A stretch of DNA of 64,000 nucleotides. Origin: Escherichia coli (GTDB lineage Bacteria > Pseudomonadota > Gammaproteobacteria > Enterobacterales > Enterobacteriaceae). The first letter of the stretch is position 1. Each line of letters starts with the position of its first letter. Under the pieces are notes generated by a model. It saw only the letters and a list, made by a program, of their open reading frames with translations. It did no database searches and was not told where the DNA came from. The DNA lies in NCBI RefSeq assembly GCF_041886205.1, contig NZ_CP169029.1; one strand, written 5' to 3'. A program made the translations under genes and the position numbers. Below are positions 36,802 through 42,964 of this stretch, in pieces.

Positions 36802-37323
36802 ATGAAACGTTTTAGTCTGGCTATTCTGGCGCTGGTTGTTGCAACCGGCGCACAAGCTGCCAGTGAAAAAGTCGAGATGAACCTCGTCACGTCGCAAGGG
36901 GTAGGGCAGTCAATTGGTAGCGTCACCATTACTGAAACCGATAAAGGTCTGGAGTTTTCGCCCGATCTGAAAGCATTACCCCCCGGTGAACATGGCTTCC
37001 ATATTCATGCCAAAGGAAGCTGCCAGCCAGCCACCAAAGATGGCAAAGCCAGCGCCGCGGAATCCGCAGGCGGGCATCTTGATCCACAAAATACCGGTAA
37101 ACATGAAGGGCCAGAAGGTGCCGGGCATTTAGGCGATCTGCCTGCACTGGTCGTCAATAATGACGGCAAAGCTACCGATGCCGTCATCGCGCCTCGTCTG
37201 AAATCACTGGATGAAATCAAAGACAAAGCGCTGATGGTCCACGTTGGCGGCGATAATATGTCCGATCAACCTAAACCGCTGGGCGGTGGCGGTGAACGCT
37301 ATGCCTGTGGTGTAATTAAGTAA
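36802..37323 (+). CDS. sodC: Periplasmic superoxide dismutase [Cu-Zn]
   Basis: ORF trimmed to MKRFSLAILALVVATGAQA (signal peptide) after a GGAGG Shine-Dalgarno; 173 aa with Cu/Zn-SOD His ligands (HGFHIH). Confidence 0.92.
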   Translation: MKRFSLAILALVVATGAQAASEKVEMNLVTSQGVGQSIGSVTITETDKGLEFSPDLKALPPGEHGFHIHAKGSCQPATKDGKASAAESAGGHLDPQNTGKHEGPEGAGHLGDLPALVVNNDGKATDAVIAPRLKSLDEIKDKALMVHVGGDNMSDQPKPLGGGGERYACGVIK

Positions 37324-39336
37324 TTAAGAGGCCAGCGTACCTTGCGGTGGTGCTTGCTCAAGTTGCGAAAGCGAGCAGTACAGCCGCCAGACAATTGCCG
37401 CCAGCTCACGGGCGGCAGGTTGATGATGACGGGCAAGGCTGTCGCAAATCCGCTGTAATTCTTCAAGTGTGGCCGCCAGTGATTTTTGCTGAACGCCACG
37501 CTCACTCATCACTCCCCGCAACAGTGAAATACAGTTATCCCGTACTCGCGATAACGGATCGGAACGCGATTCCCAGTCGCGCAATTGCCAGACAACATGA
37601 GAACAGTTCAGCAGCACTACACCCCAGCGTAATAACCAACGGCGAGCCAGCGCATCCTGGCTGTTACTCAACTGACTGACGTGATGATAAGTGAGCGATT
37701 CAAATTCGCTTTCACTCAGTGTTGGATGGCGGCTTAGCTGATCGACAAAATCCCGGCGCAGCGCGCGAATATGGCGGCGGCTTTTACGAGCATCCGATCC
37801 TGGACGCAGAATGGCGAACGCTAACCACGCCAACGCGACGCCAACGATTTTTGCCAGATTATCGTTAAGAAAATCAGCAAAATCATACATCGGGGGATTA
37901 GTGACAGCGATAAAAGAACCCATAAAAACAATCAGTTGCCCCCACAATGCGGCAAATTTTGGCATCTGCAATTTAAGAAGCTGCATTGTCGCCAGCAGTG
38001 GAAAGAGAAACAGTAAAAATTGCCACAGATCGCTAATCTGGACCATCAGACCAAATTTGACCACAAAGCTGAATAGCGAAAGTAACACCAGCGTGCGCAT
38101 CAGAAGTGACAACGACTTAAACGGTGCTGCGACGGCGGAGTAGAGTACGCAGCTAATTGCTGCCAGCGTTAATGCATTGGCACCGGCATCCCATTGCGAA
38201 GCAATACTCCATGCGCCAATCATCATCAACGTACAAAATGTACGCAGCCCGCTCCACATAGCTTCGGCGTTATCGGTATGACGAGCCAGGCCGGATGTCC
38301 GTGGGAGTCTGGTATGATCATCTACACCGCTTTGCAGACGATGTAATTCCTGACTACTTTGCAGATAAAGGCGGCAAAAATAACGTAGTCGCTGCCAGAA
38401 GGCGACGTGCCGATAGTCGGCGACGTTGGTCGGGCGTAGCGGGGCGATAATACGTGCGACGGTGTAAACATCTGTTTGCGAACTGGCGAGCGCCGTCAGC
38501 AACTGTTCGAGAATTTCTCGTGTGGCACCTGGCGGTGAGGGCCAGTTGAGCAACATACGTCGCAGGCTGGAGATGACACTGGTCATACGTAATTGCTGGT
38601 GGAGCAGCGCATTAAGGCGCGCGTTTTGCTGGCGAAAACGATAGTGGCTCCAGAAAGCCTGGATACGCAGCAAATTCATGGTCAGTATCTGCCCAATCAC
38701 CCCTTCATGTGCTGCACGAATGGCATCGGTTGTTTCAGGCTGCCAGAGTAAACTGGCATGTTCAAGTAGTCGGGCGTGCATGTTTTTCAATGCGGTTAAA
38801 AGGGCTGTAGCATCGGAACTGCTAGGCAGGATCATCATCATCATGCCGCCGCACAAAATGCCGACAATCACCTCGCAAACGCGCGCCTGAGCGATATCCC
38901 ACAGCTGGCTGGCCTCAGTAATATTAACCATCGGAAAGGCGATGATGGCAGCCGTGTAGCCCGCCAGTTGAAATGCATACGCGACGTTATTCGTGAAGTG
39001 CGCACAGGCCCAGGTACAAAAGCCAAGCCACGCCGACATGCTCAATAGAAAAAACCACGGCTCATTGAGCGTATGCCCGGCAAGAAGCAGTGCCGCAATG
39101 GCTCCGAGCAAACTGCCAGCGATGCGTCCGAGGCTTTTGCTGATAACACCGCCAACGGTGGGAAAGCTAACCACTGCAGCCGAGGTCATCGCCCAATAGG
39201 GTTCATCCAGATTTAAATAATAGGCAACCGTCAGCGCCAGACACATGGCAATGGTATTGCGTAACGCATAACGCCATTGCGCCAGCGTGGCCCTGAACCA
39301 GGGCAAATTGCGCAAGGACCATGACGATGCGTTCAT
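37324..39336 (-). CDS. ydhK: FUSC/AaeB-family inner-membrane efflux protein YdhK
   Basis: 670-aa ORF with two hydrophobic bundles; start overlaps the ydhJ stop. Confidence 0.85.
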
Positions 39337-40193
39337 TATTGACCTACGGCAATGCTACAGGTGGTGCCCGACACCAACGTGACATCGCCTGGGACTTTAT
39401 CCAGCGCAAAGCGGACGGGAACGCGTTGGGCGAGTCGAACCCAGGGGACATTAGGTTTAACATCCGGAATAAGGCTTGAGTCACTTTCAACGCTCTGATC
39501 ATAAATCGCCCGACCGATACTGGAAACGTGACCCTGTAACGTTTTGTTATCACTATAGAGGGTAATTTGTGCTGGTGCACCTTCGCGGATATGGCGCAAC
39601 TTGGTTTCTTCAAAATAACCAATGACGTAAAACGAGTGGCTGTCGACAAGGGCAAACAGCGGTTTCCCGGTATCAGCGTAATCGCCGATGCGGGTAGTAA
39701 GGTTAGTCACCCATCCACTCACCGGGGCGCGAATTTCCGTTTGCGCCAGTTGCCATTGTGCCTGTTTCAGCGTCGCCTGTGCGGCATCAACACTGGCCTG
39801 CATCGCTTTAACATTGAGGTTAGCGGTATCGAGTTCTTCGGCAGAAATAAAATTTTGTGAGAGATGACGACGACGATTCGCTTCGTTATTGGCTTTTGCG
39901 AGGTCAGATTGCGCTTTCGCCAGCTGAGCCTGTGCGTTCAGCTCGGCGATCTGAAAGGGCGTTTTATCGATCGTGAGCAGAAGATCCCCCGCGTTAACCA
40001 GCTGGTTGTCTTTTATATTCAGCTCAACAATACGTCCCGACACCTGTGGGGTGATAGAAACCTGTTCTGCGCGTATTTTCCCGTCGCGTGTCCACGGAGA
40101 TTGCATGTAATAATTCCACAGCCACCATCCGGCAAGAACCGCAACTACCGCTACAATGATTGTTGAGAAATACTTAATTGTTTTAATTGACAT
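39336..40193 (-). CDS. ydhJ: HlyD-family membrane fusion protein YdhJ
   Basis: ORF trimmed to [26 protein letters not shown].. (285 aa); coiled-coil-rich periplasmic adaptor. Confidence 0.85.
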
Positions 40194-40195
40194 AG

Positions 40196-40432
40196 TTACC
40201 ACGCAATCAGTATTGCCAGAGCAAGGCAAACGCAAATCGCAAACAGCGATAAATCCATTAACAAGGGATGCCAGATGTCACCGGCGTAGATCCAGCCACG
40301 AAGCAGGCGGTGTACGACAAGCCAGATGACGAATCCAAACGCGAAGGCTTTGAAAAACGGAGGAAAGTAGACGGACGCACCGAACACCAGATCTTGTAAG
40401 GGCAATCCTGTTGCATTGAGCATAAACTTCAC
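40196..40432 (-). CDS. ydhI: DUF1656 small inner-membrane protein YdhI
   Basis: 78-aa hydrophobic ORF immediately upstream of ydhJ. Confidence 0.8.
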
Positions 40433-40604
40433 AAAGTAGATTCCTTTACGACCGAATATATTGCGTTAGATTAATAAATATTCTTTAAGTGCGAAAAATT
40501 TACGCGCAATTTCTGAAAAATATGTCTGACGGTAACCAAATGCAGCAATACATTTGTTTTAGCAATACAATTGCTGCACACTATTCTAAAAGCCGCATAA
40601 TATC

Positions 40605-40616
40605 TTAGCAAGCTAA
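40605..40616. promoter_or_regulatory. SlyA consensus binding site TTAGCAAGCTAA in the slyA/ydhI divergent promoter region
   Basis: Exact 12-bp palindrome TTAGCAAGCTAA 11 bp upstream of the slyA start; this palindrome is the reported SlyA recognition sequence. Confidence 0.65.
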
Positions 40617-40626
40617 TTATAAGGAG

Positions 40627-41067
40627 ATGAAATTGGAATCGCCACTAGGTTCTGATCTGGCACGGTTGGTGCGCATATGGCGTGCTCTGATAGACCATCG
40701 CCTGAAACCGCTGGAGTTAACACAAACCCATTGGGTTACGTTACACAATATCCATCAGTTACCTCCAGACCAGTCGCAAATTCAACTGGCAAAAGCGATT
40801 GGCATCGAGCAGCCATCACTGGTCCGTACTCTGGACCAACTGGAAGAAAAAGGGTTAATTTCGCGTCAAACTTGTGCCAGCGATCGTCGGGCTAAACGTA
40901 TTAAACTGACGGAAAAGGCAGAGCCGCTGATCAGCGAAATGGAAGCTGTTATTAACAAAACCCGCGCGGAAATATTACATGGCATCTCCGCAGAGGAACT
41001 GGAGCAACTGATTACGCTCATCGCAAAACTTGAGCGTAATATCATTGAGTTACAGGCCAAAGGGTGA
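40627..41067 (+). CDS. slyA: MarR-family transcriptional regulator SlyA
   Basis: 146-aa [45 protein letters not shown].. matching SlyA (some annotations use a start 2 codons downstream). Confidence 0.93.
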
Positions 41068-41113
41068 AATGAAGGGGGCGTGTGGTCAGTAACCTGACCA
41101 CACGCAAACTTAT

Positions 41114-41581
41114 TTAGCGCGGAGAAACGGTCACCTGACTGCCATTGCTGGCCAGTACGACACGTTGGCCCGGAGAGAAACGAGTGTTGCCTTGTTTCTG
41201 TACCACCATGATGGTATTACCATCGTCTTTACGAATTTCCAGCTCGACACCCTGCGTTTTGTTCATTGCACTCTGTACGCCCTGACCAGCTACGCCACCT
41301 GCAACAGCGCCTGCTGCAGTAGCCAGAGAACGCCCGGTTCCGCCACCAACAGTATTCCCCAGGAAACCACCAAGAACAGCACCGCCAATTGCACCGATAA
41401 CGTTGGAATCATCACCGCCCTGAATCTGTACCGGACGTACGTTAACGATGGTGCCATAGCTGACATTCTGTACTTGTTTCGCTTCAGAAGCGGTATAAAC
41501 ATCCCCTGACAGGGTGTCGTTATTAACACAACCGACAAGAGACAGACCTACCATTGAAACAACCAATACGCGTTTAATCAT
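41114..41581 (-). CDS. slyB: Outer-membrane lipoprotein SlyB
   Basis: 155-aa ORF with lipobox (LVGC) and Gly-rich glycine-zipper region. Confidence 0.92.
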   Translation of the reverse strand: MIKRVLVVSMVGLSLVGCVNNDTLSGDVYTASEAKQVQNVSYGTIVNVRPVQIQGGDDSNVIGAIGGAVLGGFLGNTVGGGTGRSLATAAGAVAGGVAGQGVQSAMNKTQGVELEIRKDDGNTIMVVQKQGNTRFSPGQRVVLASNGSQVTVSPR

Positions 41582-41854
41582 TGAAAAATCTCCTGTTCAC
41601 CATGAAACGCCACGCAAGCATCCCTCATGGTCAAAGTATATGGCATATGTGAATCCATGGTTACATGTTCTACCAAATATGAGCAAATCATAATGAAAGT
41701 AGGATCAACCAATTATAAACAAAACATTCATGATGATTATTGATTTGAAGATAATGTTTTACTACCAACGGTAAAAATCGGTCATTCCGCATGGTATTCA
41801 CGAAAAGTTTATGTTTGAGTGGTGCGCAAACGTCAGATTGAAAAAGGATGAACT

Positions 41855-42964
41855 ATGAAATCGGGCCGCTTTATTGGCGTTATGTCAGGCACCAGCCTTG
41901 ATGGTGTTGATGTTGTGTTGGCGACAATTGATGAACACCGGGTCGCACAGCTGGCAAGTTTGAGTTGGCCGATCCCGGTATCTCTGAAACAGGCTGTACT
42001 GGATATTTGCCAGGGCCAGCAGCTTACACTTTCGCAGTTTGGACAGCTTGATACTCAACTCGGGCGACTTTTTGCTGATGCGGTCAATGCCTTGCTTAAG
42101 GAACAAAATCTGCAGGCAAGAGATATAGTTGCGATCGGTTGTCACGGTCAAACCGTCTGGCATGAACCGACGGGCGTGGCACCACACACTTTACAGATTG
42201 GCGATAACAATCAAATTGTGGCACGCACCGGAATTACGGTTGTCGGTGATTTTCGCCGTCGCGATATTGCCTTGGGAGGACAAGGCGCACCGCTGGTACC
42301 TGCGTTCCATCATGCGCTGCTGGCTCACCCAACCGAGCGACGAATGGTGCTCAATATTGGCGGCATCGCCAATCTGTCACTGCTCATTCCTGGGCAGCCG
42401 GTTGGGGGCTACGATACCGGTCCTGGTAACATGCTGATGGATGCCTGGATCTGGCGTCAGGCCGGTAAACCTTACGATAAAGATGCCGAGTGGGCACGGG
42501 CGGGTAAAGTTATTCTCCCACTGCTGCAAAATATGCTCAGCGACCCGTATTTCTCGCAACCTGCACCGAAAAGCACCGGACGCGAATACTTTAACTATGG
42601 TTGGCTGGAGCGCCATTTGCGCCATTTTCCGGGTGTTGATCCCCGAGATGTGCAGGCGACACTGGCAGAACTCACCGCCGTGACCATTTCTGAACAAGTT
42701 TTGTTGAGCGGTGGCTGCGAACGATTGATGGTATGTGGTGGAGGTAGTCGTAATCCGCTACTCATGGCGCGTCTGGCGGCATTACTGCCAGGCACAGAAG
42801 TCACCACCACCGATGCCGTTGGCATTAGTGGCGATGACATGGAAGCATTGGCTTTCGCCTGGCTTGCCTGGCGGACGCTGGCGGGATTACCAGGAAATCT
42901 GCCTTCCGTCACTGGCGCAAGCCAGGAGACGGTACTGGGGGCTATTTTCCCCGCTAACCCGTGA
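41855..42964 (+). CDS. anmK: Anhydro-N-acetylmuramic acid kinase
   Basis: 369-aa [31 protein letters not shown].. matching AnmK. Confidence 0.92.

Follow-up and report, generated by a model that had tools for sequence, protein, structure and literature searches.

The stretch of Escherichia coli DNA analysed here (contig NZ_CP169029.1; 64,000 nucleotides, called the window below, with all coordinates given as positions within it) carries ydhI, ydhJ, and ydhK, three minus-strand genes for a predicted exporter that diverge from slyA, the gene for a MarR-family regulator. Bases 37000..41700 matched the chromosome of E. coli strain VE-T9 at 100%, and of 5426 complete E. coli genomes all but one (5425) carried this region. 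The window thus belongs to the core genome of the species, and the locus reads slyB-slyA followed by divergent ydhIJK. Gene coordinates were taken from direct reading of the sequence, the list of open reading frames, and the RefSeq annotation of the identical genome. On the minus strand, ydhI (40196..40432; GTG start) encodes a small DUF1656 protein of 78 residues with two transmembrane (TM) segments, ydhJ (39336..40193) a membrane-anchored periplasmic adaptor (membrane fusion protein) of 285 residues, and ydhK (37324..39336) a 670-residue inner-membrane protein of the FUSC / aromatic acid exporter (ArAE) family; the three are paralogues of AaeX, AaeA, and AaeB, respectively. On the plus strand, slyA (40633..41067; TTG start; 144 residues) is separated from ydhI by an intergenic region of 200 bp (40433..40632). 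An earlier annotation made from the sequence alone (the first-pass annotation) had given the operon as 39334..40616, a span that takes in two of the three genes, ydhI and ydhJ, together with the larger part of the intergenic region, and leaves ydhK outside.

Profile searches assigned each of the three pump proteins to a family. YdhK matched the Pfam FUSC profile (PF04632) over its full length (E 1.9e-139; residues 20-661 against profile positions 1-658 of 660) with 466.7 bits against a cut-off of 30.9, which places it in the FUSC / aromatic acid exporter family (Transporter Classification, TC, 2.A.85); the TC number 2.A.85.1.6 is given in PMC10971958. YdhJ matched HlyD_3, HlyD_D23, and Biotin_lipoyl_2, while YdhI matched DUF1656 (PF07869; E 1.8e-14; 53.9 bits against a cut-off of 26.5) and has the two hydrophobic segments (residues 21-44 and 53-78) of a small DUF1656 subunit. 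The best NCBIfam models for the three proteins were AaeX, AaeA, and AaeB, and the gene identities proposed in the first-pass annotation (ydhI, an HlyD-like ydhJ, and a FUSC/AaeB-like ydhK) were therefore right. All three scores were sub-threshold, with 21.4 bits against an equivalog cut-off of 82 for NF008615, 243.4 against 400 for NF007850, and 120.7 against 870 for NF007916 (AaeB, matched by YdhK); being so far under the cut-offs, they rule out ydhIJK as an AaeXAB equivalog. Identity to the paralogues was 33% for YdhI and AaeX (E 1e-5), 41% for YdhJ and AaeA (E 5e-68), and 24% for YdhK and AaeB (E 1e-27). Since homology to AaeX, AaeA, and AaeB was combined with scores far below the equivalog cut-offs, we conclude that ydhIJK is a paralogue of aaeXAB and not a second copy of it.

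Sequence searches of the PDB with YdhK and YdhI matched no solved structures. The folds of YdhK and YdhJ were considered from AlphaFold (AF2) models. For YdhJ (predicted local distance difference test score, pLDDT, 84), the model showed an N-terminal TM helix (residues 3-31), a lipoyl domain, hairpin helices at 78-109 and 118-150 (about 32 residues per helix), and a beta-barrel. Its best Foldseek matches were EmrA, AcrA, and MacA (E 1e-17 to 1e-21), and these included chains of solved TolC-containing pump assemblies. With a lipoyl domain, an alpha-hairpin, a beta-barrel, and an N-terminal anchor, YdhJ is, on its predicted fold, an HlyD-family periplasmic adaptor. For YdhK, a model built from 47 orthologues (pLDDT 82; predicted template modeling score, pTM, 0.74) gave the plant proteins ALMT1 and ALMT9 as its only high-probability Foldseek matches in the PDB (0.99-1.00), a similarity that is weak by E value (7e-3 to 0.3) and TM-score (0.26-0.51). 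An untargeted-metabolomics paper still listed ydhK as uncharacterised.

The three genes are packed closely together. At the ydhI-ydhJ junction (40191..40198, minus strand), the ydhI stop codon TAA (40198..40196) is followed after 2 nt by the ydhJ ATG (40193..40191), and at the ydhJ-ydhK junction (39334..39338, minus strand), the ydhJ TAA (39338..39336) and the ydhK ATG (39336..39334) overlap by one base in TAATG. This packing, noted in the first-pass annotation as 2-bp and overlapping junctions, is read directly from the sequence, and its geometry was conserved across 80 species loci encoding YdhJ relatives, the sample used for junctions and synteny. The ydhI-ydhJ gap was 2-4 nt in 55 of the 80 loci, and ydhJ and ydhK overlapped by 1 or 4 nt in 48; in almost every locus the distance between these two genes was no more than 9 nt. 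In the window, the pairing energies with the anti-Shine-Dalgarno sequence were -9.8 kcal/mol for slyA and -5.6 for ydhI (moderate, AAGGA), and those of ydhK (-3.8) and ydhJ (-2.9) were no better than the random background (mean -3.0). The start codons of ydhJ and ydhK adjoin or overlap the stop codon of the gene before, and neither gene shows Shine-Dalgarno pairing above background. The three genes lie on one mRNA and, we propose, are translated probably by termination-reinitiation, which would hold YdhI, YdhJ, and YdhK in fixed proportion. Tight junctions are common in operons encoding complexes. The translational coupling that the first-pass annotation had suggested is thus a reasonable expectation from the conserved junctions and the background Shine-Dalgarno energies, and probable at the level of sequence. 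In Edaphovirga cremea (L080:3501-6398), ydhJ runs in frame into ydhK without a stop codon and the C-terminal residues of ydhJ are altered; adaptor and transporter may be naturally fused there, or the assembly may contain an indel.

The order slyB-slyA, divergent from ydhI-ydhJ-ydhK, was found in 77 of the 80 species loci; two of the others were cut by contig ends, and the third was an Aeromonas locus without slyA. In this species, Aeromonas rivuli, a ydhIJK-like operon (60-63% identity) has no adjoining slyA or slyB, which shows that the pump genes also occur without linkage to SlyA. We also observed ydhK copies broken by frameshifts or an internal stop in Leclercia adecarboxylata NCTC13032, Citrobacter amalonaticus, and a Leclercia metagenome-assembled genome, which could reflect the repeated pump loss reported in PMC6401476 or assembly error.

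The divergent regulator was matched by the Pfam MarR family and by the NCBIfam SlyA equivalog (NF002926; 278 bits, cut-off 120), with the PDB entries 3q5f/3deu at E 2e-78, and an exact SlyA consensus box, TTAGCAAGCTAA, lies upstream of its own gene (40605..40616, plus strand). Between the box and the slyA TTG lie 16 nt; the slyA -10 is found just upstream of the box, and a -35-like TTGCTA overlaps it on the minus strand. The box was the sole exact copy in the 64-kb window, against 0.01 expected from shuffles; the pattern with 2 mismatches was not enriched in the window (4 found, 5.0 expected), so that only the exact copy is meaningful. Among 78 sequences (the window and 77 species loci), the box was exact in 58 and carried 1-2 mismatches in the rest, and it ended 16 nt before the slyA start in 77 and 15 nt before it in the other. 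Serratia carries a perfectly palindromic version, TTAGCATGCTAA. The exact box reported in the first-pass annotation, in the region shared with divergent slyA, is real, and its offset is fixed across species. The putative slyA promoter (40573..40601, plus strand) combines a weak -35, GCTGCA (40573..40578), with the -10 CATAAT (40596..40601), which reads TATAAT in most species; TATAAT or CATAAT was present in 45 of 70 species sequences. With the -10 at 40596..40601, the box would lie at about +1 to +12 of this promoter, and because of this position next to a conserved promoter start it appears to act mainly as the autoregulatory operator of slyA itself.

The slyA start is the TTG at 40633 (RefSeq) rather than the ATG at 40627. 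This ATG directly abuts an AAGGAG Shine-Dalgarno sequence; it is absent from Serratia and Yersinia, and in Serratia an in-frame TAA stands just before the slyA TTG (GGAGGGGTAATTG), both of which support the unusual TTG start. Residue 135 of SlyA is Arg here and His in K-12 (H135R; 41036, slyA nt 404). This is the sole amino-acid difference from K-12 across SlyA, YdhI, and YdhJ, and it falls in the C-terminal oligomerisation region of SlyA.

The 200-bp intergenic region (32-36% GC) is identical to that of K-12 MG1655, and 5405 of 5423 E. coli genomes carried it with an identity of 99% or more. Across genera, the slyA-proximal part of about 95 bp (40538..40632) was strongly conserved and the ydhI-proximal part of about 100 bp was variable; Will et al. 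2019 describe the same conserved and variable pattern of the slyA-ydhI region, together with repeated loss of ydhIJK (PMC6401476). In E. coli SC516 (NZ_CP025048.1), the region matched at two separate places, one of them covering query positions 81-200, as would be expected if the control region between slyA and ydhI had been rearranged or had taken up an insertion.

Two candidate promoters point toward ydhI. The distal one, a sigma-70-like promoter (40583..40611, minus strand), has the -35 TTGCTA (40611..40606), a 17-nt spacer, the -10 TAGAAT (40588..40583), and a predicted start at about 40576. It was the only sigma-70-like hit near the 5' end of the operon in one scan, a hit that is not significant alone. 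The promoter lies within the conserved 95-bp block and its -10 (ATTCTA) was kept in 43 of 70 species sequences, and motif and conservation suggest that a distal ydhI promoter could stand back-to-back with the slyA promoter. Nearer to ydhI, a sigma-E-like promoter (40459..40493, minus strand) combines cGCACTT (40493..40487), 16 nt, TCTAA (40470..40466), 6 nt, and a predicted start at A 40459 (K-12 1720998). It agrees with GGAACTT-N16-TCAAA at 9 of 12 positions, and the intergenic region holds no second match of this kind; the sigma-E consensus is GGAACTT, 16 nt, TCAAA, 5-6 nt, and a purine start (PMC1312014). The region of this sigma-E-like promoter was conserved only within Escherichia. The operon is a known sigma-E target: ydhIJK RNA rose about 20-fold on sigma-E induction (PMC7075262), and the operon has been counted in the regulon (PMC2685091). 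The main text of the Rhodius paper does not name ydhI.

Besides the exact box, the intergenic region holds two SlyA-like sites with 9 of 12 matching positions. One, TTATTAATCTAA (40466..40477, minus strand; TTAGATTAATAA on the plus strand), overlaps the -10 of the sigma-E-like promoter; the candidate SlyA sites of Curran et al. 2017 were TTAGCAAGCTAA and TTAGATTAATAA, the latter 161 bp upstream of slyA (PMC5797941). The other, TTAGCAATACAA (40559..40570, plus strand), overlaps the palindrome AGCAAT-aca-ATTGCT (40561..40575), which extends a core of GCAATACAATTGC at 40562..40574. This is the second palindrome of the first-pass annotation; it is present, one base away from the position given there, and was overrated, being exact in just 7 of 70 distinct species sequences. 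The palindrome lies within a longer inverted repeat with 9-bp arms and a 20-nt spacer, TGCAGCAAT / ATTGCTGCA (40541..40549 and 40570..40578, not assigned to a strand), with a nested direct repeat, AGCAATACA. A CATTTGT(T/G)TT motif at 40551..40560 was kept in 55 of 70 distinct species sequences; Serratia and Yersinia retain it although the sequence around it has mostly changed there. A PhoP-box reading (TGTTTT) of the conserved CATTTGTTTT motif found no support in the papers searched and was set aside.

Binding of SlyA to this region, proposed as a check in the first-pass annotation, has already been published for E. coli K-12. In an electrophoretic mobility shift assay, Curran et al. 2017 found that SlyA bound the 200-bp slyA-ydhI fragment (PMC5797941); their primers correspond exactly to 40433..40453 and 40610..40632 of the window, so that the fragment is 40433..40632, and the apparent dissociation constant was about 50-100 nM across the promoter fragments tested. 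The regulatory outcome has been described in related species. In Salmonella, SlyA repressed ydhI about 19-fold and slyA about 5-fold in vitro, with relief by salicylate, and the salicylate-sensitive contact tied to ydhI repression was a 9-of-12 site near the ydhI -35 (PMC6401476). Will and Fang 2025 placed ydhIJK among the SlyA-repressed genes in Salmonella RNA-seq and reported that 4-hydroxybenzoate and 2,3-dihydroxybenzoate inhibit SlyA (PMC12506092). In Klebsiella, loss of the SlyA orthologue KvrA raised YdhJ 45- to >100-fold (bioRxiv 10.1101/845925). The PPTP-seq paper mentions neither slyA nor ydhI. As for the substrate, deletion of ydhIJK in Salmonella slowed growth in fusaric acid and a slyA mutant grew better in it (PMC6401476). 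The sensitivity of a pump deletion, also suggested as a check in the first-pass annotation, has been published in this form, that is, for the Salmonella ydhIJK deletion with fusaric acid only, and the statement there that the substrate is unknown still holds for the physiological substrate (PMC12506092) and is outdated for fusaric acid.

Together, the locus is in all likelihood best explained as a SlyA-controlled, AaeXAB-type carboxylate exporter with coupled genes and, in E. coli, an added sigma-E input. As an AaeXAB-type module for aromatic or organic carboxylates, YdhK, whose predicted fold resembles the ALMT organic-anion channels, would be the inner-membrane transporter that exports such a compound, YdhJ, with its single anchoring helix, would serve as the periplasmic conduit, and YdhI would be a two-helix DUF1656 accessory membrane subunit. 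SlyA bound in the intergenic region would limit transcription of both slyA and ydhIJK, and ydhIJK would be controlled by the weaker 9-of-12 sites nearer ydhI, possibly also through the box as the -35 of the distal minus-strand promoter. Aromatic carboxylates (salicylate, 4-hydroxybenzoate, 2,3-dihydroxybenzoate) would release SlyA from the DNA and derepress the pump. Such ligand release and derepression have been shown in Salmonella and are implied in Klebsiella, and we infer them, as well as the repression of ydhIJK by SlyA, for E. coli. The Escherichia-specific sigma-E promoter next to ydhI would add an envelope-stress input.

Several points weigh against this explanation, the first group of which concerns control of the operon. 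In E. coli K-12, the transcriptome of a slyA mutant was unchanged and ydhIJK was 2.2-fold up with SlyA overproduction (PMC5797941), an effect opposite in sign to that in Salmonella and Klebsiella. The first-pass annotation had proposed to measure ydhIJK expression in a slyA mutant, and the result bears out SlyA control in Salmonella (PMC6401476) and Klebsiella (bioRxiv 10.1101/845925), but not in K-12; of the two outcomes it had counted against its own reading, unchanged ydhIJK transcription in a slyA mutant has been found in K-12, yet SlyA does bind the fragment (PMC5797941). The K-12 data, together with the flagging of ydhIJK as H-NS-associated in the same study, would fit a role for E. coli SlyA not as a repressor of ydhIJK but as a weak activator or counter-silencer that displaces H-NS from the AT-rich ydhI-proximal half, with the operon mainly driven by sigma-E. 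The 32-36% GC of the intergenic region, the Escherichia-specific nature of the ydhI-proximal half, with its sigma-E-like promoter and the 40466..40477 site, and the strong rise of ydhIJK RNA on sigma-E induction (PMC7075262) agree with such a role. However, the 95-bp block and the exact box are arranged identically in Salmonella and Klebsiella, where repression is strong (PMC6401476; bioRxiv 10.1101/845925), poor laboratory expression of E. coli slyA would explain the silent mutant (PMC6401476), and 2.2-fold in an overexpression array is a weak effect; we therefore regard activation as somewhat unlikely and prefer repression by SlyA. The promoters are a further weak point, as all E. coli ydhI and slyA promoter positions are inferred from motifs and sigma-70 consensus scans were not enriched (1 site against 1.5 expected, and 3 against 5.4). 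Finally, the palindrome and inverted repeat (40541..40578) might not be a SlyA site at all, and instead be the operator of a different regulator or a 5' RNA hairpin of a long ydhI leader. The 9-bp inverted repeat is perfect, the adjacent CATTTGT is widely kept, and a transcript from the distal promoter, should that promoter exist, would begin with the repeat at its extreme 5' end. Covariation counts for the repeat across 70 species were above those of shuffles, with 65.6% of cells paired, although the structure was drawn from the window and the changes cluster in the Serratia clade. The putative leader (40577..40425, minus strand) was no more stable than shuffles (z +0.84), and searching 37000..42000 against Rfam with an E threshold of 1 gave two chance-level hits only and no known RNA element. 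Given also the few species with an exact palindrome and the SlyA-like 9-of-12 site within the segment itself, we consider a different operator or an RNA hairpin improbable.

The second group of points concerns the pump. The coupling of its genes is read from sequence, and the tight junctions could be ordinary operon compaction, with ydhJ and ydhK initiating independently. Overlaps of 1 and 4 nt are generally common in bacterial operons, the junction geometry drifts among species (gaps from -4 to +10), and the paralogous aaeXAB genes have gaps of 7 and 5 nt. Nevertheless, the junctions stayed within about 10 nt in nearly all of the 80 species despite sequence turnover, and neither the ydhJ nor the ydhK start has Shine-Dalgarno pairing above the random background, so that independent initiation seems unlikely to us compared with termination-reinitiation. 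The ALMT match of the YdhK model is weak, and the evidence for carboxylate export is the fusaric-acid phenotype of the Salmonella orthologue only (PMC6401476). The RefSeq annotation shows no outer-membrane factor gene within or beside the operon, whose neighbours are sodC and slyA, and the term tripartite used in the first-pass annotation was therefore an overstatement. For the paralogue, a review writes 'AaeAB-?', with a question mark in place of an outer-membrane partner (PMC8277102), which likewise speaks against an envelope-spanning pump docking on TolC (tripartite or tetrapartite) and leaves room for an inner-membrane exporter that releases its substrate into the periplasm. Docking on TolC is nonetheless a real possibility, if a tentative one. 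The predicted two-helix hairpin of YdhJ, its fold resembling EmrA, AcrA, and MacA chains from TolC-containing assemblies, the outer-membrane factor co-encoded with the related FusC-DUF-FusE systems, which have been called tetrapartite (PMC7682875), and the effect of tolC loss, which altered much of the Salmonella SlyA regulon (PMC12506092), all point toward it.

More speculatively, and in our view with a rather low probability, YdhIJK may be a relief valve for the very compounds by which SlyA is inactivated, namely aromatic carboxylates of the cell itself such as 4-hydroxybenzoate, 2,3-dihydroxybenzoate, or a related one, closing a homeostatic loop. The loop would run through the shared 95-bp block, in which the exact SlyA box would be both the slyA +1 operator and the -35 of the conserved, back-to-back distal ydhI promoter, and one bound dimer or one RNA polymerase would exclude both directions; E. 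coli would have added its private sigma-E promoter. If true, this private promoter would explain why E. coli behaves unlike Salmonella.

The locus, the operator, the regulator-pump link, the xenobiotic substrate, and the evolutionary pattern have already been published, and nothing in them is new here. The first reading of the sequence was correct and its interpretation largely textbook, and the binding, expression, and sensitivity experiments it called for have already been published in some form. The comparative map locates the fixed 95 bp, the variable 100 bp, the 9-of-12 sites, and the sigma-E-like promoter specific to E. coli, and it leaves only a handful of point mutations to consider for the difference in SlyA repression between E. 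coli K-12 and Salmonella/Klebsiella. Among adaptor-dependent exporters, the FUSC-type pumps are the class about which least is understood.

At its two outer ends, the locus is bounded by convergent genes. The stop codons of sodC (plus strand, ending at 37323) and ydhK (minus strand) abut with zero bases between them (TAA|TTA at 37321..37326), and any terminator must therefore be inside the opposite gene; the ydhK-sodC pair is among the 'excludon' overlaps seen by RNA-seq (PMC12288877). At the other end, slyA and slyB (41114..41581, minus strand) are separated by 46 nt containing a perfect 12-bp hairpin, GCGTGTGGTCAG-taac-CTGACCACACGC (41078..41105), which, with a T-rich tail on the plus side only, suggests a shared terminator.

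Compared with known systems, the closest solved folds to the YdhK model are those of plant AtALMT1 and AtALMT9 (Foldseek probability 0.99-1.0; 14-16% identity), a weak match in which the ALMT chains (384-400 residues) align over about 370-420 columns of the 670-residue YdhK. Unlike YdhK, the ALMTs have neither an adaptor nor a DUF1656 subunit to work with. The Burkholderia FusC-FusD(DUF)-FusE and Stenotrophomonas FuaABC operons resemble ydhIJK in combining a FUSC transporter, a small DUF protein, and an HlyD-type adaptor with fusaric-acid resistance (PMC7682875), but they additionally code for an outer-membrane factor of their own (Bucl8/FusA) and for a LysR regulator, and ydhIJK has neither. 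In its control, the locus resembles pairs of a MarR-type regulator and a divergent efflux operon such as EmrR/MprA-emrAB, with a winged-helix MarR dimer, a pseudo-palindromic operator in the shared intergenic region, and release by aromatic carboxylates (PMC6401476); in contrast to such pairs, SlyA has taken on a global role in countering H-NS silencing, and its linkage to ydhIJK has repeatedly been lost outside the enteric cluster (PMC6401476).

The slyA-ydhIJK locus of Salmonella Typhimurium and the kvrA-ydhIJK locus of Klebsiella are orthologous to the one described here, with the same synteny, the same exact box at an unchanged offset, and the conserved 95-bp block, whereas the ydhI-proximal 100 bp differ by genus (also PMC6401476). 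The Salmonella 9-of-12 site at the ydhI -35 is not conserved in E. coli, which unlike both has its own sigma-E-like promoter, and the published direction of the SlyA effect differs (PMC5797941 versus PMC6401476). Compared with AaeXAB, the E. coli efflux system for p-hydroxybenzoic acid with its regulator AaeR, where the genes are 7 and 5 nt apart, ydhIJK is packed more tightly, with 2 nt at its first junction and an overlap of 1 nt at its second, and the regulators differ in kind, AaeR being a LysR-type activator and SlyA a MarR-type repressor released by ligand. AaeAB exports 4-hydroxybenzoate, 2-hydroxycinnamate, and 6-hydroxy-2-naphthoate, whereas for YdhIJK the known compound is fusaric acid only, in Salmonella (PMC12506092, PMC6401476). 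The two systems nevertheless share the order of a small DUF1656 protein, an adaptor, and a FUSC/ArAE transporter, next to a divergent regulator gene.

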